Source of the DNA: a virus
IMG/VR virus record: IMGVR_UViG_3300008807_000159
Span: 1-49,654 of that record
Reading direction: 5' to 3' (one strand)
DNA length: 49,654 bases
Notes under the pieces: model-generated
Seen by the model: the letters and a program-made list of their open reading frames with translations, nothing else
Told to the model about the DNA's origin: nothing
The model's database searches: none
Shown here: positions 2,584-48,082 of the stretch, piece after piece
Position numbering within the stretch: position 1 is the first letter of the stretch
Layout: the number at the start of each line of letters is the position of its first letter
Program-made: the position numbers and the translations under genes

Positions 2584-3051
2584 TTAGCGGCGCACGATAC
2601 GGCAGAGGCCGTCCGTGACAGTTTCGTCGGCGATCCAGCCGGTTGCGATGTGCGTTGCGTCGGCAGCGGTTGCACCAATGAGGTCGGCCGCACCGCCGCC
2701 CGTGCCGACCGTGATCGGAGCGCCGTCAGCGACCGCGCCTTTCACGTTGACGTAGATCGCGCCGAGCGGAAGAATGCCGACATTGTCGTACTGCTGATAT
2801 TCGTCGGCATCTTGACCGGCGATAAGGGCCTGGCCGTGATGGGCGACGGCCCAGCCGAGGAAGGTTGCGAGCGTACCGACGGTGAGGGTGCAGCCGTGAT
2901 CGCCGGCGCCGCGCCAGACCGGCTGACCGAAGCCGATACCGGCGGCGGTTTCACAGGTGCGCGAAATGACGTTCCGGGTCTCGCCATTGGCGATCATGCC
3001 GGGATAGCCCTTGGCAAGATTGTCCGAATAGGTCGTCTGAAGTTCGGCCAT
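2584..3051 (-). CDS. Putative head decoration/cement protein
   Basis: 155-aa Gly/Ala-rich beta-type ORF between the scaffold and capsid genes. Assignment is mostly positional. Confidence 0.5.
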   Translation of the reverse strand: MAELQTTYSDNLAKGYPGMIANGETRNVISRTCETAAGIGFGQPVWRGAGDHGCTLTVGTLATFLGWAVAHHGQALIAGQDADEYQQYDNVGILPLGAIYVNVKGAVADGAPITVGTGGGAADLIGATAADATHIATGWIADETVTDGLCRIVRR

Positions 3052-3064
3052 CGGTCAGGCTCCC

Positions 3065-3571
3065 TTAGTACTGGCTGGCGCGAACGAGGTCGCGGACGCT
3101 GGCGTTGTCGGTGGTCATGGCTTTCGGCGCATGGATCGGGTCGTGCTTCGGCTCGATCTTGGTGTCGGCGGTCATGGTGGCGAACGAGACCGACACCATA
3201 TCGGGCGTCCAATCCTTCGCCGCATCGCCGAGCTTGGCGGTGACAACCGCCTTCTGGATGTCGGCCTCGCCCATCTCGTCGGTGACGGTGACGCCGAGCG
3301 CCTTTGCCTTCGCGGCGGCATCAGCATAGACCTTGGCGGCATCGCGCAGCTTGGCGGGCGTGATCGCGCTGTCCTTCACCTGCTGTTCGAGCGTGACGAT
3401 CTTGGCGTCCAGCGTTGCTTTCTCGGTCGTCAGGGTGGCGACCTTAGCTTCGGCGGCATCCTTGGCGATGATCGCCTCATCCTTCGTGGCCTGAAGCTTC
3501 GTGACCGCAATCTTCACGGCATCGCCGTCGTCCAGATCGACCTTCAGGCCGTCGAGCATGATGAAATTCAT
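3065..3571 (-). CDS. Possible nested scaffold protein from an in-frame internal start
   Basis: Internal ATG at 3571-3569 (MNFIMLDGLKVDL...) preceded by AAAGGGAAA 6 nt upstream. A copy of the late motif lies 74 nt upstream. Analogous to lambda C/Nu3. Confidence 0.35.
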   Translation of the reverse strand: MNFIMLDGLKVDLDDGDAVKIAVTKLQATKDEAIIAKDAAEAKVATLTTEKATLDAKIVTLEQQVKDSAITPAKLRDAAKVYADAAAKAKALGVTVTDEMGEADIQKAVVTAKLGDAAKDWTPDMVSVSFATMTADTKIEPKHDPIHAPKAMTTDNASVRDLVRASQY

Positions 3572-4192
3572 TGATCGTTTCCCTTTGAGGTGATCGATTA
3601 GGTGGGGGAGTGCATCACAGGCGGCGAACTCGTTACCGCCGTCAGAATTGGGGGATTGGTCACCGATGCGGCATTTCGATCCGGCACGGCCACGGGCGAC
3701 GATCGCGACGTGATTGCCGCGGATGTTGCGCTGGACCGCCTGATAGGCGGTGCCATCGGGCGCGGTGCCATCCTCGAACGCGAGATCGCAGGCATAGCCG
3801 TTGGAGAGTTCGCGCTTGCCGGCTTCGACGTCGGCAACGGCCTGTGCGTCCATGATAGTGAGGTCGAAAGCGAGAAAATCGCCGTCGCGCAGGGCATTCA
3901 TCACGCCGCCGCGAGTGTGGTCACGCCAATTGGCGGCGGTCACCGGCTGGGCGGGGTGGTCGTTTGTGATCGGCTTGGCGATGAAGCTGTGAACCGACGC
4001 CTTGTCGAATACCTCGGATTCGGGTCGATAAACCTTTACGACGTCGTTGGGTTTGAACTTCGTGCCCTGCGGGTCAACCTCGCTGCCGAGGTAGTCATAG
4101 ACGCCGGAACGAGCCGCTTTGGCCCGAACCGCCATGAAGCCATCGCTGGTCTTGCGCGGTGCGCCGAGCGTGAGGGCGTCCTGAAAAAGCAT
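3065..4192 (-). CDS. Prohead protease/scaffold fusion (DUF2213-like N-terminal domain, Ala/Lys-rich coiled-coil C-terminal half)
   Basis: 375 aa. Globular N-terminus of about 185 aa, then a long AKA/coiled-coil segment typical of scaffolds. Lies between the portal/MuF and capsid genes. Confidence 0.7.
   Translation of the reverse strand: MLFQDALTLGAPRKTSDGFMAVRAKAARSGVYDYLGSEVDPQGTKFKPNDVVKVYRPESEVFDKASVHSFIAKPITNDHPAQPVTAANWRDHTRGGVMNALRDGDFLAFDLTIMDAQAVADVEAGKRELSNGYACDLAFEDGTAPDGTAYQAVQRNIRGNHVAIVARGRAGSKCRIGDQSPNSDGGNEFAACDALPHLIDHLKGKRSMNFIMLDGLKVDLDDGDAVKIAVTKLQATKDEAIIAKDAAEAKVATLTTEKATLDAKIVTLEQQVKDSAITPAKLRDAAKVYADAAAKAKALGVTVTDEMGEADIQKAVVTAKLGDAAKDWTPDMVSVSFATMTADTKIEPKHDPIHAPKAMTTDNASVRDLVRASQY
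3632..3645 (-). promoter_or_regulatory. Late motif copy (minus sense CTGACGGCGGTAAC)
   Basis: Lies inside the protease/scaffold gene, 74 nt upstream of the internal ATG at 3571. Confidence 0.5.
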
Positions 4193-4224
4193 GGACGCTG
4201 GGATATTGAGAGGCGGGAGGCGGA

Positions 4225-4238
4225 TTTACCGCCGTCAG
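4225..4238 (-). promoter_or_regulatory. Late motif copy (CTGACGGCGGTAAA)
   Basis: Its first base is 46 nt upstream of the protease/scaffold ATG (4192). An AATAT box lies 32-36 nt downstream. No SD before the ATG. Confidence 0.55.
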
Positions 4239-4239
4239 G

Positions 4240-4512
4240 TTATGGGGAACTCTCCGCCAGCGCGGCGTCGATCATGGCTTGCCAGATGTGCTCAGGTATA
4301 TCTTTTGGATGGTGACATTCTCCATAACCCGCCGTTTGCATCCCCTCGCTCGGCCCCCGGATCGCGGTGAGCACGGCGCGCGCGGCGTCAACATGATCGC
4401 CCCAGTTTTTCGCTTCCCACTCATCCGCGCTGACATAGGGGAATTGCGCCTCTCCGCCGGGAGGGCAGGAGCGACGGGCCAGAGCACGCGCGGCGCGTTC
4501 GAGCGGGGTCAT
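4240..4512 (-). CDS. Hypothetical protein
   Basis: 90-aa ORF whose start overlaps the upstream stop (ATGA type). Confidence 0.55.
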   Translation of the reverse strand: MTPLERAARALARRSCPPGGEAQFPYVSADEWEAKNWGDHVDAARAVLTAIRGPSEGMQTAGYGECHHPKDIPEHIWQAMIDAALAESSP

Positions 4513-4949
4513 GCTGCCTTCTTCCGTGCGATTGCTGCTTGCACCCGATCGTAATGCCTCAGGATGTCGCCAATGCGTTCCGGCCTCAGCCCATATTCCT
4601 TGGCGAGTGCGACGCGCGTTTCGCCAGTGCGAAGGCGAGCAATGATCTCGAGATTACGGCGCTGGCGTTCAGGCTTGTTGCCGAGCCCGGCAAGGCCGTC
4701 TGGCAGCGATGGCACGCCGCGAAGCGAATTGATCCGCTCACGCTCGGCGGGGGCGTATCTGGCTAGATACTCATCGTCCCATGATTTGAGACCGGCATCC
4801 AAAAGAGCGGCGGCAATCTCGTCCGCGGTTTTTCGGCCGCAATTTGGGAATCGCAAAAGCTCCGGTAACCAGCCGGGCCAAGAAGCAATCTCCTCAAGCC
4901 CGCCAGCTTCGTAGATCCGGTTTAATGCTCGGTTTGAAAGGCGGGTCAT
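4509..4949 (-). CDS. DNA-binding regulator: RNAP alpha-CTD-like helix-hairpin-helix plus sigma70 region-4/LuxR-like HTH
   Basis: Start taken at the internal ATG 4949 (MTRLSNRALNRIYEAGG...FPNCGRKTADEIAAALLDAGL). The C-terminus RRNLEIIARLRTGETRVALAKEYGLRPERIGDILR looks like an HTH. The longer ORF to 5069 overlaps the upstream gene. Confidence 0.55.
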   Translation of the reverse strand: MTRLSNRALNRIYEAGGLEEIASWPGWLPELLRFPNCGRKTADEIAAALLDAGLKSWDDEYLARYAPAERERINSLRGVPSLPDGLAGLGNKPERQRRNLEIIARLRTGETRVALAKEYGLRPERIGDILRHYDRVQAAIARKKAA

Positions 4950-5010
4950 GCTGGCACCTGCGTGGTCGCATCGATAATGGCGTGCCAGCAACCGCGGTCG
5001 GACAAGACGG

Positions 5011-5274
5011 TCATTGACGCAATTCCTTAAGCATCCGCTCAAGCTCCTCCACATAAATCTGCATGCCACGCACCTCAGTCACGGCGCCTTCAGGCGACCG
5101 AGTGGCGAAGTTTCCTAGAACCCAGTTCTCATAGACTTTCCAACCATTCGCGTATGCCTTGATCTCGCCCCCATCACTGGTGGCCCTAGTCCCGATTATC
5201 TCCACACCTTTCTGTAAAATTTCTGCCCAGAATTGCGCCGGCACATCAACGTAGTTATCCGTATCATCAGCCAT
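5011..5274 (-). CDS. Hypothetical protein
   Basis: Start taken at ATG 5274 (MADDTDNYV...) with GGAG 8 nt upstream. Locally AT-richer than its neighbours. Confidence 0.5.
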   Translation of the reverse strand: MADDTDNYVDVPAQFWAEILQKGVEIIGTRATSDGGEIKAYANGWKVYENWVLGNFATRSPEGAVTEVRGMQIYVEELERMLKELRQ

Positions 5275-5358
5275 GTCGAACGCTCCATGTTCGGGGTGGT
5301 CAGGGTCGGCGATGTTCCTGCATCGTCGGCCCGAAAGGCTAGCAGAATCCGCCAAAAA

Positions 5359-6192
5359 TCATAGCGAAATCACACTCAACGACCTGCACCCGCAATAAGG
5401 AAGTTGGGCCGGTCGGTCATTTGGCGGGGCGTTAATGGTCTTGCCGTTCACTTTTCCGCCGACCGCTGAAGGGTCGTCCGAATAGACCTTCCCGTCGCGC
5501 GCGATATGCTCCTCACGGCCATGTTTCTTGTGCGACCAGAGCCACTCCCACTCCGACAACCCAGCCTGCCGACGCCGCTCATCCGCCAGCGACGACGTCA
5601 ATTTTCGCAACTGATCGCTCGCACACCGTCGAGCCCGAGCCCGAGACATTCCCGCAACCTCGCGCAACCGCCGCCCAACCTCATCAGCCGGCGTCCGATT
5701 CCTAAGCCCATCGAACACAGCCTGGCTCATCTTCTGCCGCGCCTCATCCGAGACCGAGCGAACCAGCGCGACATTGTTGGCGATGATAGTTTCGAGAGTC
5801 GCGCGCACGTCCGCAGGCCCGAGCATGGTCGAAAGATCGACTTTCGACGCCGACAGCACGGCCGATGTCCATTTCCGCCGATGCCACCGCTCGACGAAAA
5901 GGGTCCAGCGTTCGATGGCGGGTTTCAATGAGAAGAAGATCGCGCCCGATCGGGCCTCTGCCGCAGCAACGTCAGCCTCAAGGTCTGACGGCGCATCAGT
6001 CGTCATCTGGGCGAGCGAACGGGCATATTCCTGGGCAAGCCTGTCGGATGCTTCGACCCACACCTTCACGACCGGCTCATAGGCCGCGCGGTAGAGGTCG
6101 CCTGCATGCATGGCGACTGGCTTGATGTCGCGGATGATGGTGGATTTGCGCAGGCCTTGGCGGCGGGCGAGGGCGGGGAGGGAGAAGCGCAT
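5359..6192 (-). CDS. Head morphogenesis protein (Mu F / SPP1 gp7-like)
   Basis: 277 aa immediately after the portal gene. C-terminal WSHKKHGREEHIARDGKVYS pattern is typical of the MuF family. Confidence 0.7.
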   Translation of the reverse strand: MRFSLPALARRQGLRKSTIIRDIKPVAMHAGDLYRAAYEPVVKVWVEASDRLAQEYARSLAQMTTDAPSDLEADVAAAEARSGAIFFSLKPAIERWTLFVERWHRRKWTSAVLSASKVDLSTMLGPADVRATLETIIANNVALVRSVSDEARQKMSQAVFDGLRNRTPADEVGRRLREVAGMSRARARRCASDQLRKLTSSLADERRRQAGLSEWEWLWSHKKHGREEHIARDGKVYSDDPSAVGGKVNGKTINAPPNDRPAQLPYCGCRSLSVISL

Positions 6193-8114
6193 TAGGCCTC
6201 CTCGATTTTCGACTTCCAGTCCAGATCGAGCGGCTCGAAAATCTCAGGCCCGAAGCGCAACTCGCCCGAGTAGGGCTTGATCTTGTCGAGATCGACGGCG
6301 CCCGCATCATAGGTCAGCGTGACGTGCGGGGTATATTCGTCGTAGTCATGCGAGCCGCCTGCTTGAATCATGTCGTTATGGCGCGAGACCAGCGACCACG
6401 ACGCGAACTGCAGGACGACAGCGCCCTCACCGAAGCGTTCGATCGCGCGCGGACCGCCAGCCTTGACGATCAGTCCGCCGTCAGGTTCGGAGCCCCATGT
6501 CTCGCCCATCTTCATCGGGTCGACGGGCTGGCGTGAATAGAGGACGGTCACATCCATGTCCGACGCTTCGAGCGTCGACGTGAAGCCGTTGGACTTCGCC
6601 CATGCGATGAGCGCCTTTGCCGACGTGGGCTTGAGGTCACGGCGCACATAGAGCGGGCGGGGCGTGGCATCGGCGAAGATGCGGGCGAAGCTGTCGTTGG
6701 CCGCGAGGGGCAGCGGATCGACGTTTTCCTCCTCTTCCTCCTCCGGCATTCCGCCGTAGCGTTCGGCTTCGGGCACCTTGTCGAGCGCCGCGTCGAGGCC
6801 AGGCATCCACCCGTTTTCGACGAGGCCGTTCTGGTATGCCTCGTTGAATGCAACATCGGGGACAGCGCCGGTAAGCTGCACTTTTTCGGCAGCCTCAGTC
6901 CATTTCTTGAAGCGGTCGGTTTCTTCGGCGTCGCTCGGTTCGGAAAGCGGCGCGAACTTCCACCAAATCTCGGGCGGGCGCGAGCCGAGCGCCGAGGGGA
7001 TCAGCGCGGCGTCGATCTTGAGCAGGCATGGACGGGTCTCAAGCTTCTGGCCCTTCATGACCATCTTGTCCCAATTGTCCTGATCGCCCTCGCCGGTTGC
7101 GTTCAGACCCTTGGACGCCGTACCCCAGAAGCGCGTGACCGGGATGTCGGACGCCGCCGACATGGCCTCGGCATAGGCGAGGATCATGCCGGGGATCCCG
7201 GTCCAGTCAACCTGATGGCGGTCGATGGACTCCGCGCCCTTCCCATCGGCATCGCCGTTATCATATACCTTGCCGTTGAAGACCGACGAGCCTTGTTGCA
7301 TCAGGGCGAGGCGCTTCATCAGGTCCGCTTCACCATTCGGCTTGCCGAGCATTTCGAACAGGCGCGAGATGCCGACGTCGACGTTGAGCGCGTCCTTGAT
7401 CATCGCGTTGAACGTCGCCAGCGCCTCGTCGAGATTCTGCGCCGGCTCGATCAGGGTCGGCACTCGGCCCCTGCCCCAGAAGCGGCTTTCCCAGTCGCCC
7501 TTCCAGATCGACGGCAGAGGACGGCCGCGGAAGCATATGACGCGCGAAGGATGGAGGCGGGTTTGTGAGCCGGAGCCGCTCATCTCCCAATATTCGGGCT
7601 CGCCAAACAGGTTGGTCGCCATGTTGTCGTTCCAGTTCTGGCCCGACAGGTGATAGCGCGAGACGACGTTGATGGCGGTAAGGCCGCCCTTGCCGGTGAC
7701 TTTGAGCGGCTGCGAAGGATCGGTGCCCGAGATCAGGATGAGAGCGCCGCCTCCTAGGCCCCGAAGCACCTCGGCCTGCTGAACCTTGGCTTGCAGGTCG
7801 TGCCGCTCTTCTTCGGCCTCGATCAGCTCGATCTGCTCTTTCGTCGCCTGCCAGTCGCGCCACTCGCGCACACGGTCTTCGGCGGGGATGTCGATCGCCT
7901 TCGCCAGTGACCAAGACGCCTCATAGGCCTCCTCGATCTGCGAGGGGGCCATGATCGATGCGATATACTGGCGGCCGAGGCGGGCATCGCCGCGCATTCC
8001 GAGACCGGTGATGACGTTGGCGAGGCCGTCCCGTGCGCGCATCGGCACGACGTTGCCGCCAGCATCCATCACGAAGCCGGGCTTCGGCCGAGGGTTTACG
8101 AGGCGTCCGGACAT
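6192..8114 (-). CDS. Portal protein (DUF1073-type) fused to a C-terminal 2H-phosphoesterase (Acb1/LigT-like) domain
   Basis: 640 aa. The N-terminal ~470 aa are portal-like and follow TerL. The last ~170 aa carry HVTL (His codon 6324-6326) about 75 aa after a DVTV box (Asp codon 6552-6554). Confidence 0.75.
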   Translation of the reverse strand: MSGRLVNPRPKPGFVMDAGGNVVPMRARDGLANVITGLGMRGDARLGRQYIASIMAPSQIEEAYEASWSLAKAIDIPAEDRVREWRDWQATKEQIELIEAEEERHDLQAKVQQAEVLRGLGGGALILISGTDPSQPLKVTGKGGLTAINVVSRYHLSGQNWNDNMATNLFGEPEYWEMSGSGSQTRLHPSRVICFRGRPLPSIWKGDWESRFWGRGRVPTLIEPAQNLDEALATFNAMIKDALNVDVGISRLFEMLGKPNGEADLMKRLALMQQGSSVFNGKVYDNGDADGKGAESIDRHQVDWTGIPGMILAYAEAMSAASDIPVTRFWGTASKGLNATGEGDQDNWDKMVMKGQKLETRPCLLKIDAALIPSALGSRPPEIWWKFAPLSEPSDAEETDRFKKWTEAAEKVQLTGAVPDVAFNEAYQNGLVENGWMPGLDAALDKVPEAERYGGMPEEEEEENVDPLPLAANDSFARIFADATPRPLYVRRDLKPTSAKALIAWAKSNGFTSTLEASDMDVTVLYSRQPVDPMKMGETWGSEPDGGLIVKAGGPRAIERFGEGAVVLQFASWSLVSRHNDMIQAGGSHDYDEYTPHVTLTYDAGAVDLDKIKPYSGELRFGPEIFEPLDLDWKSKIEEA

Positions 8115-8146
8115 GCGCGCGGGTATGTGTTTTGGGGGAGCGTGGA

Positions 8147-8160
8147 TTTACCGCCGTCAG
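8147..8160 (-). promoter_or_regulatory. Late motif copy (CTGACGGCGGTAAA)
   Basis: Overlaps the TerL stop codon. Its first base is 46 nt upstream of the portal ATG (8114). A CATAC box lies 34-38 nt downstream. No SD. Confidence 0.55.
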
Positions 8161-9389
8161 AGGGCGGACGACATGGCAGATTGGTAGTCGTAACGGTCAA
8201 GCTTGATCAGCGGTGAGATGCTGTAGCGGATTGAATCTATCCAGTGGTTGTTGGCGTCGACAAGAACGGCGAGGATATCGCCAGTCAGTCGGTCGACCTT
8301 GTAGCTGTAGAGGCGCATTTCGGTAATCGTGTTGGTGCAGCGCGGATGCACGACAATCTCGCGGAAGGCGCGCAGGAATCGGATGCCGTCGTCGACGCTG
8401 CCCTGCCACTTGTCGGCGCCGATCGCCTTAGGCAGCCCCGATCGCGTCAGGATGCTGATCGAGCCAGGCGAGGCGCTATCCCACCTGCTGACGTGATCGG
8501 CATAGCCCGGAATCTCCTCGGTCACCCTTTGAGCGATGTCGTCAAGCTCGATGCCACGCCCGCCGGCCTCATGGCTGACATAGAGCGTGTCACCGTGAAT
8601 ATAGGTTCGGACAGCCGCAGCGGGATCCTGCGCATATCCGAAGTCACCGCCCTGGTACGGCCCGTCCCAATAATCGGCGGGTTCGAACTCGGCAACGCGC
8701 CATTTGCCGGAGAATACTTGGGCCGCCGAATTGACCAGATAGGCGCCGTCCCAGACATGGGCATAGGTGGCCGGGTCGAGGCGCGCCTGCTCGCGTCGGC
8801 GAAGCTTGTCGAGGCCGGCGGGGAAGAACGGGTTGTCCGACCAGTTCATTTCTACGGTGATGGCGTTGGTCGGCGGATTTTTCCGAAACCGCATGTCCAC
8901 AGGGCTGCCGTCGAGGCGCGGATTCCATAGCGCCCAAAGCTCGGACTTGGGCTGACGAAAGACGGTGGCCTCGAGCGCGAGCCACGACGCCTCGGGAACG
9001 TCCTCGGCTTCTTCGACGATGGTCAGGTCGATCTTGGCGAGCGACTTAATCGTGTTGACGCTATGCCTGAGCCCGCGAAACAGAAACTCGGTCCCGTTGC
9101 GTCCACGCAGATAGTCGACACCGACGTCGTAATGATCTTCGAGCCACGGGTAGGAGGCGATGGCTGCCTTCAATTCGGCGTGGAACGACTCCTTGATGCT
9201 GGCCTGAAACTCGCGGGTGCAGAGGACGCGGATCGGTTCGGCATAGCCCCAGATGGCGGCCATGAGCGCGGCCGAAAAGGATTTACCCGACCCGCGCCCC
9301 CCGTGCATGTTCCGGTATTGCACCGCGCCCCGTTCGAGCGCGAACATTGGGACGAGCTTGGGGGGGAGTTGGATGCGGGCTTCGGTCAC
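8157..9389 (-). CDS. terL: Terminase large subunit (PBSX-like)
   Basis: 410 aa. Walker A GGRGSGKS and Walker B-like LTIVEEAED. Follows the small subunit with an overlapping start. Confidence 0.9.
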   Translation of the reverse strand: MTEARIQLPPKLVPMFALERGAVQYRNMHGGRGSGKSFSAALMAAIWGYAEPIRVLCTREFQASIKESFHAELKAAIASYPWLEDHYDVGVDYLRGRNGTEFLFRGLRHSVNTIKSLAKIDLTIVEEAEDVPEASWLALEATVFRQPKSELWALWNPRLDGSPVDMRFRKNPPTNAITVEMNWSDNPFFPAGLDKLRRREQARLDPATYAHVWDGAYLVNSAAQVFSGKWRVAEFEPADYWDGPYQGGDFGYAQDPAAAVRTYIHGDTLYVSHEAGGRGIELDDIAQRVTEEIPGYADHVSRWDSASPGSISILTRSGLPKAIGADKWQGSVDDGIRFLRAFREIVVHPRCTNTITEMRLYSYKVDRLTGDILAVLVDANNHWIDSIRYSISPLIKLDRYDYQSAMSSAL

Positions 9390-9775
9390 TTCGCCGCTTC
9401 GATGACGATCTTGGTCACTTTCGGCGTCATGCTGCCGTCGGAAGAACGATGGTCCTGTTTGTCGATAATCAGGCCCAGCACCTTGGCCTTACCCATTGTG
9501 GCAGACACCATGGCTGCGGGCGCCTCCATTTCTTTTGCGAAGGCCCGGTCTTCATCAAGCTGGCGAGCGATATCCGCCGCCGTGACGACCGCCTTTTCGG
9601 CGGCGGCATTCTTCAGTTCGGCCACCCGAGCAGCGACCTTACCATTTGATACCAGCCGGGACGCATGGCTTTCATTAGGTTTGAAACCCGCCGCCCTGTA
9701 AGCATCGAGCTGCGATTTTCCCTTCGCGAGTTCCTGCGCGAACTTCTCATGGCGCGAGTTTTTGAGGACGCTCAC
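9386..9775 (-). CDS. terS: Terminase small subunit
   Basis: 129 aa. N-terminal NSRHEKFAQELAKGKSQLDAYRAAGF pattern is typical of P27-type small terminases. Confidence 0.75.
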   Translation of the reverse strand: MSVLKNSRHEKFAQELAKGKSQLDAYRAAGFKPNESHASRLVSNGKVAARVAELKNAAAEKAVVTAADIARQLDEDRAFAKEMEAPAAMVSATMGKAKVLGLIIDKQDHRSSDGSMTPKVTKIVIEAAK

Positions 9776-10158
9776 CGTTCCACCCTCGCCATAGCCGCCC
9801 GGCGAAACTGATCTCGACCAGCAGGGCTAAGCCTGTTCCAACGATCCGCCATCGATGCCAGCGTGATTTCATCCGCCAATTCCGGCGTCAGGGAGAACCA
9901 TTCCCCATGCGTCCGCAGATGAGCCCAGCGGCGATGCCATTCAGTCTCGACTGATGAGCCCCCCGCAACCGACCCGATGAATTCCAGCGAGACGGGCGAC
10001 ATGAGCGCAACCTCGGCAAATCGTCGCCCCGGTTGAAAGCTGGTGCCGATCTTGATCATTCCCACTGACGGTGCGGAAAGGAAATACACGCGGTCGCCGA
10101 TCTCGCGCGCCACGTCCTGATGAACTTCGGTCGCGTTCATGAATTCGACGCTGATCAC
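9772..10158 (-). CDS. T5orf172 / GIY-YIG-like domain protein
   Basis: 128 aa with IKIGTS...RRFAE...EWHRRWAHLRTHGEWF, the T5orf172 signature. Confidence 0.6.
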   Translation of the reverse strand: MISVEFMNATEVHQDVAREIGDRVYFLSAPSVGMIKIGTSFQPGRRFAEVALMSPVSLEFIGSVAGGSSVETEWHRRWAHLRTHGEWFSLTPELADEITLASMADRWNRLSPAGRDQFRRAAMARVER

Positions 10159-10388
10159 CGCATTGCCCTTTCCCGATCCATCTCACGCGCCCGGTCAAGC
10201 AGCGCGAGATTGCCCATTCGATATTCGCGGCCCATGTCGGTGAGCGCATGGCCGCCGCAGATGTGAAACCAGTTGCGCAGGACATCAGTCCGCGAGCCGT
10301 ACATGCGCTCGACCTTGCGCCATCCACCGCGAACGAAGTTCTCGACGAAGTGAGGCGGGGGAGGCTTGGCCTTTCGCTCCATCAGCAT
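10155..10388 (-). CDS. Hypothetical protein
   Basis: 77-aa ORF coupled to both neighbours by overlaps. Confidence 0.5.
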   Translation of the reverse strand: MLMERKAKPPPPHFVENFVRGGWRKVERMYGSRTDVLRNWFHICGGHALTDMGREYRMGNLALLDRAREMDRERAMR

Positions 10389-10993
10389 AGGTCGATGTCC
10401 TCGTAACCGGCCTCGGCCGCCTCAGCGATGGCATCGGCTAGATATTCTCGGACCTCTTTCGTCTCGCCGTTCCAGAGGAACTGCAGCTTCTTCATCGCCT
10501 TGGTTTCACGGTCATCGTGATTGGCGTCGGCGACTTGGAGAAGCCCGAGGTCGATCTTGCGCAGGCGGGCTATGGTGCGGAGTTTGGCGCAGGGGATTTT
10601 CTCCGATGCCGCCTGTTCGAGCAGCGCATCTCCGTCTGCAGGGGGAAGCGCGGCGACCTCGGCGTGATGCGTGAACGAAACATCCTCACGTCGACGTGAG
10701 GTTTCGAAAGATCGCGAGATCGAGCCCAGGTTCTGAAGGCCGCCAAAGCTCAGCCCCCAAATCCCCTCCGCAGCCATCTTCGCCCGCTCACCATAGCGAT
10801 GCTCACCGAACGCCCACCAATCGCCTATCCACCAATTGATGACGCGCTCACGGGCAAAGAGCCGGCGCCCTATCGCCTGCCAGTCTTCGAAGCTGGTTTC
10901 GGCGGGAATGGTGAGGGACAGGCTGCCGTCGTCGAGAGTGACGATGCCAGGATCATTGTCGGCGACGATGGAAAGAGCGGCGGACGAATTCAT
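10382..10993 (-). CDS. Hypothetical protein (Trp-rich WWIGDWWAFGEHRYGER motif)
   Basis: 203-aa ORF with high GC3. No family recognised. Confidence 0.6.
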   Translation of the reverse strand: MNSSAALSIVADNDPGIVTLDDGSLSLTIPAETSFEDWQAIGRRLFARERVINWWIGDWWAFGEHRYGERAKMAAEGIWGLSFGGLQNLGSISRSFETSRRREDVSFTHHAEVAALPPADGDALLEQAASEKIPCAKLRTIARLRKIDLGLLQVADANHDDRETKAMKKLQFLWNGETKEVREYLADAIAEAAEAGYEDIDLC

Positions 10994-15353: not shown

Positions 15354-16957
15354 GCGGCCATCTCCATGCCGATCTCAGCCAGCACCGACCTTGTCATCAC
15401 CTCAGGATGTTCGCGCTCGATCCACTGGAACACAGACGGCTTCTCGGCGCGGATCCACATCAGTGCCGCAACAGCGCCCTTCGACGCCGCGGGCATCCCT
15501 TCCTTGCGATAGGCTTTCACCTGCATCGGGGTCAGGCCGATCGAGTCCGCGAATTGCTGGGCCTCGATACGGCCCTGAATTACGTGTCGGGCCCAAGCCT
15601 CGGGATGTTTCTGACCCCGAGAGCGTGCGACACGAATAAGGTCTTCGAGCGTTTCCGCCTGTCCCTGCTCGCGCTTCCGGTCCTGCATCTCAGCCCGGCG
15701 CAGCGCCTCGACGTCGATCTCTTTCAGCTCGCCATCGACCTGCTCGATCTCGCGAACCGGCGCGACATAGACGTGACCGCAATTCGGGCACTCTGGCACC
15801 GGACGGAACACGGCAAAGCATTCGGGACAGGTGCGGATCGCGACTTCGGATTTCTCACCGGCCTTCCGCTTTTCGCGATCTTCCAAAGACCATGTGCGAT
15901 CGTCATCTGGAAAGCCATGCCCCTGTCCGTTCAGCTCGCGCGGGAGGCTGTTGCCGGCATGGTCGAGAATGATCGCATAATCTTTGCCCGGCGCGGGACG
16001 AAGCGCGCGACCGACCTGTTGGAGATAGAGCGATAGGGATTTGGTCGGCCGCAGCAGAATGACGGCCTCGATCGCGGGGACATCGAAGCCCTCGCCGAAC
16101 AGCTCGCAGTTCGACAGGACGAGCGTTTCGCCTGTGATGAAACGCTGGATCGCGGCATCGCGGGTCGTCGTGTCCATACTGCCGTCGACATGCTCGGCGG
16201 CGATACCGGCCAATTGGAACTGCTGGACGATATGACGCGAATGCTCAATATTGACGGCAAAAGCTACGGCGCGCTTGCCGGGGCAAAGCTTCTGATAATG
16301 CTTCACGGCATCGCCGACGATCGACGGTTTGTCCATTACGTCGGCCAGTTCATCGCGCTTCAGGTCGCCATGCTGGGTGCCAACCGATGACAGGTCAGGA
16401 ACGTGCGGCGCGAACAGGCGATATTTCGACAGAGCGCCGGCTTCGATTAATTCCTTGACCGTTGGGCCGTTGATCATGTGCCCGAACCAGCGACCGAGCC
16501 CGACGCCATCGAGGCGCCAAGGTGTTGCAGTCAGGCCGATGATTTTCGCGTCGGGGAAAGCGTCGAAAATCTGTTGCCACTGCCCCGCGCCGAGGTGGTG
16601 GCATTCGTCGAAGATGATCAGATCGGGTGCGGGGAGTTTGTCGAGCCGGCGCGCTACGGTCTGGATCGAGCCAATTTGCACCAGCTTGTGCGGGTCGGTC
16701 GAATGTCCGCCCTGGATGATGCCGTGAACGATGCCCATGCTCGCGAAGGTGCGGCTCGTCTGGCCGATAAGTTCGCGGCGATGGGTCAGCCACCAGCAGA
16801 CTTTGCCCTTCTGCGCGGCGCCGTGGATCATGTAGGAGCCCGAGACTGTCTTGCCGCCGCCCGTTGCGAGCTGCAGAAGGATCGCGCGGATACGGTCACG
16901 GAAGCCGTCGCGGGCGCCGTCGAGCAGGGTTTGCTGATAGGGGCGGAGATGGATCAC
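15350..16957 (-). CDS. SF2 DEAD/DEAH-box helicase with C-terminal zinc ribbon
   Basis: GTG start at 16957 overlaps the upstream stop (GTGA). Motifs LATGGGKT, IIFDECHH and CPECFAVFRPVPECPNCGH. Confidence 0.85.
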   Translation of the reverse strand: MIHLRPYQQTLLDGARDGFRDRIRAILLQLATGGGKTVSGSYMIHGAAQKGKVCWWLTHRRELIGQTSRTFASMGIVHGIIQGGHSTDPHKLVQIGSIQTVARRLDKLPAPDLIIFDECHHLGAGQWQQIFDAFPDAKIIGLTATPWRLDGVGLGRWFGHMINGPTVKELIEAGALSKYRLFAPHVPDLSSVGTQHGDLKRDELADVMDKPSIVGDAVKHYQKLCPGKRAVAFAVNIEHSRHIVQQFQLAGIAAEHVDGSMDTTTRDAAIQRFITGETLVLSNCELFGEGFDVPAIEAVILLRPTKSLSLYLQQVGRALRPAPGKDYAIILDHAGNSLPRELNGQGHGFPDDDRTWSLEDREKRKAGEKSEVAIRTCPECFAVFRPVPECPNCGHVYVAPVREIEQVDGELKEIDVEALRRAEMQDRKREQGQAETLEDLIRVARSRGQKHPEAWARHVIQGRIEAQQFADSIGLTPMQVKAYRKEGMPAASKGAVAALMWIRAEKPSVFQWIEREHPEVMTRSVLAEIGMEMAA

Positions 16958-17136
16958 AACCCAAAGGCCCCCGCCAACCGCCGTGTATGCTCGACGGAAA
17001 GATTGTATTGGCGCGCGACCTGCTCGGCAGGCTGACCCGATCGCACGCGGCGGCGGATGTCGGCATTGCGCGAACAGTCGGCGTTCCAGCGTTCGTAGCG
17101 CTGCGAGGTCCGGGCGAAGAGGTCGAGGCGGTTCAT
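16954..17136 (-). CDS. Small HTH protein
   Basis: 60 aa. ADIRRRVRSGQPAEQVARQYNLSVEHTRRL resembles a resolvase/sigma-type HTH. Confidence 0.5.
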   Translation of the reverse strand: MNRLDLFARTSQRYERWNADCSRNADIRRRVRSGQPAEQVARQYNLSVEHTRRLAGAFGL

Positions 17137-17876
17137 GCGGCCGCTCCTTCAAGGAACAAATCACCTTGCCGCTGAGCGTCCTCGATGCGCTGGCAGGCGA
17201 TGTCGAAAAAACGGGCGTCCTGTTCGATACCGATGAACCGGCGCGCCAAAGCTGTGGCTGCTACTCCGGTCGTCCCGCTGCCCATGAATGGGTCTAGGAT
17301 GATCTGTTCGGGCTGCGTAAAATCCCCGATGATTTCGCTCATCAGGCGCCGCGGCTTCTCCGTGGGGTGCTCGCCGTGGCGTTCTGGATTGTTGACGCAG
17401 TGCGTGTAAACGCCTCGCTTTCCGCTGGCATTCCAGTTCGCATGGCCGCTACCGGCCCACGCGCAAACGAACATTTCGGCACCGGACGCCGGGCCTTGAC
17501 CGTTAAACTGCGGCGTCGAATCCGGTTTCACCCAGACGCAGGCGCGCTTGTATTTCAGCGCACTCTCGTTGATCTCGTCAGCCCAGCGGCCAACGCCCTC
17601 TGGCGTGCAAAAAGCGATGAACCAACCTTGGCTCTTTGCGCCCATGTCAACGACCTGCCTGCGGATCGCGTCGATGGGAGCGAAATTCAAGGGGCGTCCG
17701 AGTCTGGTCGACGCGCCCTTGAGGTTTCCCTTGGGCACTGAACCGATCGCCGCCTGTGTGATCGCCTCATACGGCGGGTCGGTAATCAGATGGGCGACAG
17801 GCCCGAGCGTCGGCACGATTTCGAGCGCGTCACCCTGATAGAGCGTAGCGCGGCCTATGGTGACGGGCTGGCTCAT
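17133..17876 (-). CDS. DNA methyltransferase, N6-adenine/N4-cytosine type (beta class)
   Basis: 247 aa. DPPY motif (ITDPPYE) lies N-terminal to the AdoMet motif ILDPFMGSGTT. Confidence 0.85.
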   Translation of the reverse strand: MSQPVTIGRATLYQGDALEIVPTLGPVAHLITDPPYEAITQAAIGSVPKGNLKGASTRLGRPLNFAPIDAIRRQVVDMGAKSQGWFIAFCTPEGVGRWADEINESALKYKRACVWVKPDSTPQFNGQGPASGAEMFVCAWAGSGHANWNASGKRGVYTHCVNNPERHGEHPTEKPRRLMSEIIGDFTQPEQIILDPFMGSGTTGVAATALARRFIGIEQDARFFDIACQRIEDAQRQGDLFLEGAAA

Positions 17877-18652: not shown

Positions 18653-18880
18653 TCATGCGGCGGCGCTCGAGGGGGTATATTCGCTCGGCGGGTATATGTC
18701 CGGGCGCCACTCGTGCCTCGGGATTCCCGTCACAGCCTCTGCCTTCCGGACAAGCTCGGCGGGAAGTTGCGCGCCCTTCGCAATCCAGTTGGAGATATTT
18801 TGCTGGCTGATCCCGATAGCCTCGCTTGACTCACCGGTCGCCAATGCCAAGGTGCCAAGATGTTGCCGTCCGACAAAATC
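18653..18880 (-). pseudogene. Degenerate second copy of the cro/YdaS-like gene
   Basis: By eye roughly 75-80 percent nt identity to 19262-19440. Encodes ...EAIGISQQNISNWIAKGAQLPAELVRKAEAVTGIPRHEWRPDIYPPSEY. It has no ATG at the equivalent start and lacks 3 codons in the first HTH helix. Its 5-prime end is overlapped by an opposite-strand gene. Confidence 0.55.
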
Positions 18881-19147
18881 GCGCTTGAACGGGAGGTCGT
18901 CACCAACTGCGAAACCATCGGAATTGAGGGTGTCAGGGATAAGTTGGCACAACGAGCCTATTCTGGAATGCGTCGACGGATGGCGGAGGCTTGGCTGGAA
19001 GAGGCGATCGCGGTTCGCGAGCGCGAGATTGATCGCAACATCGCTCGCAGTGGCAACCGGATCACATTTTGGACCGCCGTCAGCGGCAATGTCATTGCTG
19101 TGCTGGCGCTGGCCGTCGCGACCTACGCCGCACTCACAGGGCAGTAG
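18860..19147 (+). CDS. 95-aa tail-anchored membrane protein, opposite strand to the early operon
   Basis: AAGGTG SD 6 nt upstream. Charged helical N-terminus and a C-terminal TM segment ITFWTAVSGNVIAVLALAVATYAAL. Good GC3. The antisense ORF 18653-19201 is not protein-like upstream of the cro homology. Confidence 0.55.
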   Translation: MLPSDKIALEREVVTNCETIGIEGVRDKLAQRAYSGMRRRMAEAWLEEAIAVREREIDRNIARSGNRITFWTAVSGNVIAVLALAVATYAALTGQ

Positions 19148-19148
19148 A

Positions 19149-19265
19149 TCAGTCACGGAGCCGTTCCTTCGTCTGGAAATAGCTGATGAGATTGGCGGCA
19201 AAAGACATGCCGATGCCGAAGGACATGACGATCAGCGCGACAAAGATGACGGGATCGATGCTCAT
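19149..19265 (-). CDS. 38-aa membrane peptide downstream of cro
   Basis: Hand-translated as MSIDPVIFVALIVMSFGIGMSFAANLISYFQTKERLRD. ATGA overlap with the cro stop. Confidence 0.45.
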   Translation of the reverse strand: MSIDPVIFVALIVMSFGIGMSFAANLISYFQTKERLRD

Positions 19266-19504
19266 GCTGCCGCGCTCTGGGTGGGGGCGTATTCGCTCGG
19301 CGGATATATATCCGGACGCCATTCGTGGCGGGGAATGCCAGTCTCGGCCTCCGCCTTGCGAACGAGTTCCGCGGGAAGAGGAGCACCCTTCGCGATCCAG
19401 TTAGAGATATTCTGCTGGCTGGTGCCGATGGCCTCGGCAAGACGGCTCTGCTTGCCGTCAAACTTGGGCAATTCGAGTGCGCGCTGAAGAGGGGTGGTAG
19501 TCAT
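19262..19504 (-). CDS. cro: Cro/YdaS-like HTH repressor
   Basis: Start at ATG 19504 (MTTTPLQRAL...). HTH segment SRLAEAIGTSQQNISNWIAKG. Divergent from the cI-like gene. Confidence 0.75.
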   Translation of the reverse strand: MTTTPLQRALELPKFDGKQSRLAEAIGTSQQNISNWIAKGAPLPAELVRKAEAETGIPRHEWRPDIYPPSEYAPTQSAAA

Positions 19505-19513
19505 GAATGCAAC

Positions 19514-19578
19514 GCTTACAATCCAAGCGTTACAATTACAACCCTTTTGTAGCGGCACTACAATCAATAGTTTTGTAG
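19514..19578. promoter_or_regulatory. OR-like operator/divergent promoter region
   Basis: Half-sites TTGTAG/CTACAA and TTACAA: TTACAAT 19516 and 19530, TTACAAC 19536, inverted repeat TTGTAG-N5-CTACAA 19547-19563, TTGTAG 19573. Confidence 0.6.
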
Positions 19579-19589
19579 CCACCCCGGTT

Positions 19590-20279
19590 ATGCGGATGCC
19601 CGACGATCCCGGCAAGGCCGGACTGTGGACTAAAGCCGAGCGCGACAAGCGCGGCTGGTCGGCGGCCGAACTCGCGAATCGCATCAACGGGCGCGCGAAA
19701 TTTGAGGGTGACGAGGCTACGAGGGTTAGTCAGCAGGTCGTGTCGAAGTGGGAACAAGGCACCACCAAGCGCCCGCCCCCATGGACGCGATATATCACGC
19801 TAGTGCTTGAAGATGGCGATGGCGAAACTTCGCATGATCTCCACCTCCACACCGGCCTTGATGACGCGAGCGTCGACATCCAGCGCTTGCCTACCTTTGT
19901 CGGATTGGGATCGGGCGGCACTGGCGACGACGACCCTGGCAAAGTTTCGTTTTCCCGTGATCTCGTCATGAGGGAGCTGCGGGCGGACCCTGAGGCCCTT
20001 CTTGCGATGGTGGCTGAGGGCAACTCTATGGAGCCGGATTTTCGCGGCGGCGATCAAATTCTTGTCGACACGCGGCGCAAGTCTTTAGCCCAGCCCGGAG
20101 CGTTCTGCATTTGGGATGGCGACGGTCATGTCGTCAAATTCATTGAGAAGGTGCCAGACAGCGAGCCACAACAAATTCGGCTGGTGTCGGCGAACGGAAT
20201 ATATGAGCCCCAGATACGGTTGCTCGAAGACGTCAGCATCATTGGGCGCGTGATTTGGTTTGGGCGTCGTGTGCAGTAG
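19590..20279 (+). CDS. cI: CI-like repressor (HTH plus S24 LexA-type autopeptidase)
   Basis: Start at ATG 19590. C-terminal GNSMEPDF (Ser) and VVKFIEK (Lys) motifs. No SD, so possibly leaderless like lambda cI. Confidence 0.85.
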   Translation: MRMPDDPGKAGLWTKAERDKRGWSAAELANRINGRAKFEGDEATRVSQQVVSKWEQGTTKRPPPWTRYITLVLEDGDGETSHDLHLHTGLDDASVDIQRLPTFVGLGSGGTGDDDPGKVSFSRDLVMRELRADPEALLAMVAEGNSMEPDFRGGDQILVDTRRKSLAQPGAFCIWDGDGHVVKFIEKVPDSEPQQIRLVSANGIYEPQIRLLEDVSIIGRVIWFGRRVQ

Positions 20280-37352: not shown

Positions 37353-37366
37353 GTTACCGCCGTTAG
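37353..37366 (-). promoter_or_regulatory. Late motif copy (variant CTAACGGCGGTAAC)
   Basis: Its first base is 44 nt upstream of ATG 37322. A CATAG box lies 31-35 nt downstream. No SD. Confidence 0.5.
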
Positions 37367-41467: not shown

Positions 41468-41481
41468 ATTACCGCCGTCAG
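41468..41481 (-). promoter_or_regulatory. Late motif copy (CTGACGGCGGTAAT)
   Basis: Starts 1 nt after the tape-measure stop. Its first base is 48 nt upstream of ATG 41433. A CATAG box lies 32-36 nt downstream. No SD. Confidence 0.55.
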
Positions 41482-45842: not shown

Positions 45843-46085
45843 TCAGGCGCTATTACCGCCGTCAGACTGAGGACCGAGGCGCAGTCGTGGAATGAGGACA
45901 ATATTGTCGCGGCGTTCGTCGTCGCGGTCGACGCTGGCCTCGATCAGCGCAGAGCGGGCGCGATGCGCGGCCTCATCCTCGCCATCGTCCTCAAGGCGAC
46001 GCGCGATTTGCTCGACGTCGGATACGTCGAAAATGCCCTTGCGGATTTGCTGAATGAGGATTTCTGTCGCCAGAGGGTCGGCCAT
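45843..46085 (-). CDS. Acidic hypothetical protein
   Basis: 80-aa ORF with high GC3. Its last codons (SDGGN) are the late motif. Confidence 0.5.
   Translation of the reverse strand: MADPLATEILIQQIRKGIFDVSDVEQIARRLEDDGEDEAAHRARSALIEASVDRDDERRDNIVLIPRLRLGPQSDGGNSA
45852..45865 (-). promoter_or_regulatory. Late motif copy (CTGACGGCGGTAAT)
   Basis: Its first base is 68 nt upstream of the major tail ATG. A CATAG box lies 32-36 nt downstream. A small hairpin (45806-45824) and a GGAG SD lie in the leader. Confidence 0.5.
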
Positions 46086-47974: not shown

Positions 47975-48082
47975 CTAGCAGTTTACCGCCGTCATAATCG
48001 CCGTCCCTAGTGCCACGACAATGCAGCATCCGATCAGGAAGTGCTCGACCCCCCAGCGATCCCGCGACCGGCGACGGGTCAC
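47975..48082 (-). CDS. 35-aa membrane peptide
   Basis: GTG 48082 overlaps the SGNH-gene stop (GTGA). Translation (GTG read as M): MTRRRSRDRWGVEHFLIGCCIVVALGTAIMTAVNC. Confidence 0.35.
   Translation of the reverse strand: MTRRRSRDRWGVEHFLIGCCIVVALGTAIMTAVNC
47982..47995 (-). promoter_or_regulatory. Late motif copy (variant ATGACGGCGGTAAA)
   Basis: Its first base is 44 nt upstream of ATG 47951. Confidence 0.45.

Follow-up and report, generated by a model that had tools for sequence, protein, structure and literature searches.

A phage head-module protein joining an RNA polymerase alpha-CTD-like domain to a sigma region 4-type helix-turn-helix, read as a possible accessory DNA-binding factor

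Known phage strategies for countering host transcription mostly modify or bind subunits of the RNA polymerase (RNAP)—Alt and ModA of T4 ADP-ribosylate R265 of the alpha subunit, and AsiA binds region 4 of sigma. To our knowledge, no phage-encoded free copy of the alpha C-terminal domain (alpha-CTD) joined to a sigma region 4-like helix-turn-helix (HTH) has been characterized. Here we describe a gene for a protein of this make-up in the IMG/VR virus record IMGVR_UViG_3300008807_000159, whose 49,654 nucleotides (nt) were analyzed as one stretch and are referred to as the window. The gene lies in the head module, between the genes for a MuF protein and a protease/scaffold protein, and its product is 146 amino acids (aa) long. 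We read this product as an accessory ('moron'-type) bipartite DNA-binding factor, probably self-regulated via the leader of its own cassette and perhaps with further targets beyond it; judged from sequence and predicted structure, this reading has about an even chance of being right.

The described system to which the N-terminal half is closest is the alpha-CTD of RpoA (PF03118). The two share the four-helix, double helix-hairpin-helix fold, (HhH)2, the pattern LS-R...LL--PN-G-K--EI...GL, and the equivalents of R265, G296, K298, and S299—positions whose numbering and roles in DNA contact come from established alpha-CTD genetics and structures. In four family members the equivalents of the first three (R7, G38, and K40) are invariant, and the fourth (position 41) is T or S. 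The protein differs from RpoA in being free-standing, with no alpha N-terminal dimerization/assembly domain (PF01193/PF01000), and in carrying a fused HTH; within the domain, the equivalents of N268 and C269 vary among family members, the equivalent of E261 is a basic residue (R or K), leaving the 261 determinant charge-reversed, and an invariant, family-specific SWPxWL insertion stands where RpoA has its 287-determinant loop.

The C-terminal half resembles region 4.2 of sigma-70, KorA, and ArdK, sharing with them a three-helix HTH and the pattern RN--I---(R/K)-GE-----A-E-G(L/I)----R---I. Unlike sigma-70 factors, however, the protein has neither sigma region 2 nor sigma region 3, and its likeness to region 4.2 is confined to an HTH of about 45 residues; the absence of region 2 means that the protein is not a sigma factor. 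A likeness to the Mor/C late activators is seen in weak PHROG matches of the HTH and in two remote homologs weakly matched by Pfam Mor, but the protein lacks the N-terminal dimerization domain of Mor and C and is not a member of their family. The combination of RNA_pol_A_CTD with Sigma70_r4 is itself already present in databases, in both orders: the HTH precedes the alpha-CTD in P0026, P0103, P0114, and P0139, and follows it in P0104 and P0098. The small proteins of this kind are 131-175 aa long, and the family profile matches them at E 1e-8 to 4e-4; they differ from the protein described here in that most have the reverse order, none aligns with it outside the domains, and no phage head module is known to encode one. 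Each is a singleton recovered from a metagenome or a metagenome-assembled genome, carries no name, the name 'hypothetical protein', or a name of RNAP alpha or its C-terminal domain only, and is uncharacterized.

The gene and the parts of its product, with the evidence that defines each, are placed in the window as follows.

4509 to 4949, minus strand: gene for the 146-aa alpha-CTD-like and HTH protein (P0001), from its open reading frame (ORF) and translation
4785 to 4943, minus strand: N-terminal alpha-CTD-like (HhH)2 domain, residues 3-55, from hhalign, AlphaFold2 (AF2), and Foldseek
4668 to 4784, minus strand: linker, residues 56-94, with conserved WDD, ER, and GLG patches, of low predicted local distance difference test score (pLDDT) in the full-length model
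4539 to 4667, minus strand: C-terminal sigma region-4/KorA-type HTH, residues 95-137, from AF2 and profile matches

This is a real coding gene. The ORF on the minus strand, with its ATG at 4949 and AGGTG 6 nt upstream of that ATG, translates to exactly the 146-aa sequence quoted when the gene was first noticed from the DNA letters alone (hereafter the original prediction). Compared with its 55%-identical homolog in a related contig (L001), differences by codon position number 54/31/100 and synonymous codon differences number 49, and it is this third-position bias of divergence that marks the gene as real. Both the alpha-CTD-like and the HTH patterns in its product are far beyond chance.

The N-terminal half is homologous to the RNAP alpha-CTD and has the helix-hairpin-helix fold, the pattern of which the original prediction had already recognized. 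An hhalign comparison of four family N-halves with an alpha-CTD alignment returned a probability of 96.8% (E 2.5e-10, 51 columns), pairing residues 3-55 with residues 261-313 of E. coli alpha; the alpha-CTD alignment included E. coli and B. subtilis rows, and the core of the B. subtilis row agrees with the alignment from our search of the PDB. As a single sequence the protein matches Pfam RNA_pol_A_CTD weakly and below threshold (E 0.04; 14.0 bits vs a cut-off of 23.8), a further difference from the RpoA domain, and the best matches of a two-sequence profile in the PDB are six distinct alpha-CTD sequences (E 0.12-1.4). The AF2 model of this half, built from a 19-row alignment, has a pLDDT of 86.6, with helices at residues 6-15, 18-22, 27-32, and 39-51 forming the four-helix (HhH)2 fold. 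Foldseek placed the alpha-CTD 9dvt_A first (probability 0.97, template modeling score 0.60-0.64, root-mean-square deviation 2.0 A, 53 columns), followed by more alpha-CTDs and the related RAD51 N-domains; model and structural search together show the HhH fold, and the structures closest to it are alpha-CTDs.

The C-terminal half is a sigma region-4/KorA-type HTH, and we regard this fold call—which agrees with the sigma70 region 4-type HTH read there originally—as sound. AF2 gives residues 100-130 a pLDDT of 90-94, with two sequences only, and a 29-row profile of the C-half matches ArdK/KorA (1.2e-4) and region 4 of SigA (5e-4), RpoS (1.5e-3), and RpoH (3e-3) in the PDB. Remote homologs pass Pfam Sigma70_r4, and the HTH half itself has weak Pfam matches to CENP-B_N and HTH_28. 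The matches to PHROG families annotated 'late transcriptional activator' are weak and fall on the HTH only (phrog_836, E 0.008; phrog_532, E 0.026). Pfam Mor, GerE, and Sigma70_r4 gave no match to the protein itself at E up to 1, and the PDB sequence search with the C-half profile returned no Mor or C chains at E up to 1. Foldseek with the full-length two-domain model (pLDDT 64) found nothing significant, with HTH-type proteins at E >1 only. A combined alignment of both halves for AF2, made with MAFFT, was dropped—the alpha-CTD segments fell onto the HTH half.

The family is very rare and uncharacterized. It amounts to five clusters among 5.8 billion, and an exhaustive HMMER search with the family profile against 1.8 billion representatives returned 171 proteins, the N-half matches among which pass Pfam RNA_pol_A_CTD (P0019, P0113, P0026, P0114, and P0139 included). 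Searches of IMG/VR and of GTDB genomes found no homolog; tblastn and DNA searches of INPHARED found no isolated phage with a homolog, and only an insignificant match to the HTH; and a search of the literature found no described alpha-CTD-like phage protein of relevance. These results agree with the original prediction, in which the domain combination was not recognized as that of a described phage late regulator. Each domain type also turned up apart from the family. Many metagenomic and bacterial proteins carry 4-11 tandem HTH units of the form RN-EI-(R/K)R--AGE, among them P0003 (629 aa), P0004 (433 aa, encoded on a 3.6-Mb contig), P0005, P0007, and P0009-P0015. Stand-alone alpha-CTD-like proteins are encoded in two related phage contexts: a 76-aa ORF at about 4796-5023 (plus strand) of contig L003, between TerS and TerL, which passes Pfam RNA_pol_A_CTD with 28.3 bits, and a 117-aa protein at 5677-6030 of L017, in the early region beside a GapR-like gene.

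Homologs of the protein are found at the same MuF-to-protease position in seven other metagenomic contigs (L001-L007), all in related head modules in which a fusion of portal and Acb1 is called wherever the portal is complete. Three of the seven (L001, L002, and L007) have full-length homologs, the L002 copy having been shortened by the gene caller, and the proteins of these phages and of the window—the four that bear the conserved leader described below—are 55-58% identical. The closest relative is L007 (its protease is 96% identical), where an in-frame stop at codon 73 (L007 468-470) falls between the two domains; the copy could be a pseudogene or a gene split in two, unless the assembly is at fault. 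The other four contigs (L003-L006) have the HTH half only, as an 81-aa product encoded behind an unannotated 269-aa ORF with a 4-nt overlap. The 269-aa ORF of L003 has no Pfam match, and its assignment by eye to the HNH endonucleases was dropped. Neither half of the protein has a homolog in L008-L014, L015, or L016, where all six-frame ORFs were searched with hidden Markov models (HMMs); L015 and L016 extend the coverage of the contig of L008, IMGVR_UViG_2731957634_000001, to 33 of its 40.6 kb.

The head module reads, all on the minus strand, TerS, TerL, portal, MuF, an 87-aa ORF (orf87), the gene described here, a 90-aa ORF, the DUF2213 protease/scaffold gene, the cement protein, and the major capsid protein.

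9386 to 9775, minus strand: TerS
8157 to 9389, minus strand: TerL
6192 to 8114, minus strand: portal with a C-terminal Acb1 domain
5359 to 6192, minus strand: MuF
5011 to 5274, minus strand: orf87, an AT-richer 87-aa ORF, insertion specific to the window (GC 0.52; GC at third codon positions, GC3, 0.57)
4240 to 4512, minus strand: 90-aa ORF, its start overlapping the stop of the regulator gene by 4 nt
3065 to 4192, minus strand: DUF2213 protease/scaffold gene

The slot between the MuF and protease genes thus holds three ORFs in the window, where the original prediction counted two genes. It is an insertion hot spot: in length it runs from 59 nt (L013) to 3464 nt (L002), and among the genes that it carries are an HNH_3 endonuclease (L008), an IS1595 transposase beside the gene (L002), DUF2513 (L001), and small ORFs. 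The slot of the window is 328 nt longer than that of L007, which is without orf87, and no homolog of orf87 was found in any of the related loci. The 90-aa ORF is homologous to an 84-aa ORF behind the L001 homolog (BLASTP 1e-13) and adjoins the homolog in both L001 and L007; tblastn finds it also in L007, L002, L008, and L012, with slot copies in L002 and in L008, the latter without the gene described here. The GC content from about 4950 to 5400 is 0.52-0.55 vs about 0.62 in the flanks, bearing out the remark that part of the stretch is visibly AT-richer, and the AT-rich part is mainly orf87. The GC3 of the regulator gene is 0.61 vs 0.72-0.81 in the core head genes.

Upstream of the cassette, comparison of the four phages with a full-length gene brings out three elements.

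5270 to 5305, minus strand: conserved 36-nt leader CCCTGACCACCCCGAACATGGAGCGTTCGACATGGC, ending in the start codon, from the four-way comparison
5303 to 5332, minus strand: GC-rich hairpin just upstream of the leader, from RNAalifold and from the single-sequence fold
5333 to 5362, minus strand: candidate sigma-70-type promoter, overlapping the MuF stop codon, from invariant columns of the four-way alignment

The window, L002, and L007 share the leader CCCTGACCACCCCGAACATGGAGCGTTCGACATGGC letter for letter and L001 differs from them at one position, a far stronger conservation than that of the 55-58% identical proteins; the loci without a full-length gene do not have the leader. It holds a 17-bp palindrome or hairpin, CGAAC-N7-GTTCG, set around the start codon and its GGAG ribosome-binding site. 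The 5' 17-mer of the leader occurs only once in the window, and near-matches to the palindrome occur at chance level; the idea of the leader as a repeated operator was therefore set aside. An Rfam scan of 3000-9900, leader included, gave no family match. In the hairpin upstream, RNAalifold predicts nine pairs, three of them with compensatory changes, from four sequences only. Further upstream, a TGA core followed after about 16 nt by TAGnnT makes up a possible sigma-70-type promoter for the cassette, which a scan for the E. coli consensus does not flag. In L001, L002, and L007 the leader with ATGGCTGATGA directly precedes the regulator (MAD- start); in the window it precedes orf87 (MADD- start), from which it follows that orf87 entered immediately behind the original start codon. 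The regulator of the window now begins at a new ATG, 61 nt beyond the stop of orf87. A sigma-54-like TGGCAC noticed by eye in this 61-nt spacer was dropped, its downstream element being unlike TTGC.

Taken together, the gene has the marks of an accessory cassette—variable presence, a syntenic module, a slot of varying length, lowered GC3, and a leader and hairpin of its own, with an inferred promoter—carried by one lineage of temperate alphaproteobacterial-type phages. In its product, two predicted DNA-binding modules flank a linker of about 40 residues. The alpha-CTD-like (HhH)2 module keeps the residues with which alpha-CTD touches DNA, in the minor groove and along the backbone, and the HTH, being of the kind that reads a major-groove site, would provide sequence-specific anchoring; the alpha-CTD-like domain would then bind adjacent DNA or contact a protein via its SWPxWL surface. 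The most likely target in cis would be the invariant 36-nt leader, with its 17-bp palindrome over the ribosome-binding site and start codon. With the leader as its own target, the cassette would control itself, and if the protein acts elsewhere too, it would do so at host promoters or, as a modulator, at some of the phage promoters.

Several points weigh against this reading. We infer both DNA binding by the protein and the operator role of the leader from sequence, and the leader could work at the RNA level only, through a hairpin that contains the ribosome-binding site, or some other factor could bind it. The HTH half stands alone in L003-L006, where there is no leader, which means that the two halves and the leader are separable, and in the window orf87 lies between the leader and the gene. 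On the N-terminal domain, the Foldseek E-values are 0.3-3 and not significant alone, because a 55-residue helical domain is small, and the AF2 input alignment for this half included alpha-CTD-type segments. Finally, the loci from which the gene is absent are partial, with 33 of the 40.6 kb of the L008 contig scanned and L009-L012 being 5-13 kb each.

An alternative that we consider unlikely, but that survives better than the others, is that the protein, a free look-alike of alpha-CTD plus sigma region 4, is directed at the host as a decoy or occluder—occupying UP-element and -35 regions of host promoters, or titrating a host partner of alpha-CTD, and so reshaping host transcription in the lysogen or during infection. 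The DNA-contact residues are conserved; the charge-reversed 261 determinant and the SWPxWL insertion in the 287 loop suggest a new partner surface; the cassette may own a sigma-70-type promoter, like many morons; and stand-alone alpha-CTD-like ORFs recur in related phage contexts (76 aa in L003, 117 aa in L017). However, the promoter call is weak and the consensus scan does not flag it. The host-directed role does not exclude the accessory factor favored here and is compatible with it.

The original prediction went further and paired the protein, as an activator or sigma-like appropriator, with the repeated late motif CTGACGGCGGTAA of this phage. The motif occurs 11 times in the window at two or fewer mismatches vs 1.4 expected, and its sites include the following.

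4226 to 4238, minus strand: the copy nearest to the gene, outside the cassette and 33 nt upstream of the protease ATG
8148 to 8160, 3633 to 3645, 47983 to 47995, 45853 to 45865, 41469 to 41481, and 37354 to 37366, minus strand: further CTGACGGCGGTAA sites

Copies lie on the coding strand 31-35 nt before ATGs, such as those of the portal, protease, and tail genes, with a few sites further off. In the usual layout, taken over 34 distinct sites at one or no mismatch in the window and the related loci (L001-L016), CTGACGGCGGTAA is followed about 18-22 nt downstream by NATA(G/C/T)C and about 6-11 nt later by the ATG, usually with no Shine-Dalgarno sequence. This arrangement suggests a promoter for leaderless or near-leaderless late mRNAs in which the motif would sit at about -46 to -34. 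The protein as late activator would place its HTH on CTGACGGCGGTAA and its alpha-CTD-like half on RNAP or on nearby DNA, and the geometry of a fused alpha-CTD and sigma region 4 suits such a promoter: the motif sits at the usual place of sigma region 4 and the proximal alpha-CTD, ahead of the -10-like NATA(G/C/T)C and the ATG. Additionally, each locus with the gene also has CTGACGGCGGTAA, and the HTH has the weak PHROG late-activator matches given above.

The distribution of the motif makes this role improbable. Exact copies of CTGACGGCGGTAA stand at the same positions in L008 (six copies in 21 kb) and in L009-L012, all of which are without a homolog of either half as far as they were covered (33 of 40.6 kb for the contig of L008), and no letter of the motif changes between phages whose proteins share only 40-60% identity. 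Gene and motif, then, do not travel together across the related phages. Since CTGACGGCGGTAA is kept in phages without the protein, the reader of the motif is a host factor or another phage protein, and the protein is optional rather than a late-gene switch. The idea of a late regulator also fits poorly with a gene that is reduced to its HTH in L003-L006 and interrupted by a stop codon in L007, and that is encoded inside the motif-driven late operon, in its insertion hot spot and downstream of the motif-bearing promoters, within the very operon to be switched on. The positions matching the sigma-70 base contacts R588/Q589 vary within the family (GD, TQ, SD, TE) while the motif is invariant. An obligate partnership of the protein with CTGACGGCGGTAA is thus not supported, though the protein may have a modulatory role at late promoters.

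Other candidates for the late regulator are encoded in the window.

10382 to 10993, minus strand: LmbU-family-like 203-aa protein (NCBIfam E 5.9e-28; 97.9 bits vs a cut-off of 125)
10155 to 10388, minus strand: conserved 77-aa ORF next to the former, immediately ahead of the T5orf172 and packaging genes
16954 to 17136, minus strand: 60-aa HTH-only paralog in the early operon, between methylase and helicase genes (C-half HMM, E 6e-7)

Homologs of both the 203-aa protein and the 77-aa ORF are present in L003 and L013; for the 77-aa ORF, L010 and L012 add weak matches. The 60-aa paralog has ATGA and GTGA start/stop overlaps with the N6/N4 DNA methylase and SNF2/ResIII helicase genes and a GGAG ribosome-binding site; the helicase gene probably starts at GTG 16957 rather than at 17164. 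None of the three is universal across the partial loci, and the LmbU-like protein was rejected as a universal late regulator, being not found in L010, which has CTGACGGCGGTAA.

Two observations on the motif stand beside these. A copy internal to the DUF2213 protease/scaffold gene is conserved (3633-3645, minus strand, in the window; L002 8053, L007 1553, L009 4311, L010 10513, and L012 8001) and, in the window, L002, L007, L009, and L010, precedes by about 60 nt an in-frame ATG (MNF...) with a ribosome-binding site of AGGGA/AGAGGA type, which suggests a separately expressed nested scaffold product. A copy with two mismatches lies at 19071-19083, within the lysogeny-switch region.

A bolder possibility, to which we give only a small chance, is that the protein mimics, in a single chain, the pair of alpha-CTD and sigma region 4 that usually lie next to each other on UP-element and -35 DNA; it would dock at such sites in host or phage promoters and either block RNAP or replace those contacts.

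The least probable explanation is a DNA-binding module that takes no part in transcription and was left by, or serves, a mobile element, for instance a homing endonuclease: mobile genes do occupy the slot (the HNH_3 endonuclease of L008 and the IS1595 transposase of L002), the HTH half of L003-L006 overlaps the 269-aa ORF by 4 nt, the remote homolog P0104 joins alpha-CTD and Sigma70_r4 to homing-endonuclease-associated repeats, and the window has a T5orf172/MUG113 gene at 9772-10158, but in the window, L001, and L007 no nuclease domain is found in or beside the gene, the 269-aa ORF of L003 has no Pfam match, and a decaying remnant would not be expected to be under purifying selection or to have its own, strongly conserved leader.

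The phage has other features of note. Its portal (6192-8114, minus strand) ends in an Acb1 domain, an anti-CBASS 2H-phosphodiesterase, at residues of about 487-635 (Pfam PF23474, E 1.1e-41), and the fusion is also called in L002 (1335-3209), L003 (6401-8251), and L005 (318-1217); an anti-defense nuclease may thus be built into a virion structural protein. The T5orf172/MUG113 gene (GIY-YIG-like, minus strand) overlaps the start of TerS, so that the packaging module is probably headed by a mobile nuclease gene. A lysogeny switch at 18653-20279 consists of a CI-like repressor with an S24 peptidase domain (19494-20279, plus strand) and, divergent from it, a YdaS/HTH_3 Cro-like ORF (about 18653-19201, minus strand), which makes the element a temperate phage or prophage.

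For annotation, it follows that the gene described here should not be labeled a late activator. If the accessory factor binds promoter DNA or an RNAP partner, it would be a new type of tool and a compact bipartite DNA-binding scaffold; if it were the single-chain mimic, it would represent a new class of phage transcription appropriator, built from fused copies of two RNAP promoter-recognition modules. The stand-alone alpha-CTD-like ORFs of L003 and L017 suggest, additionally, that phages make wider and so far unnoticed use of the alpha-CTD domain.

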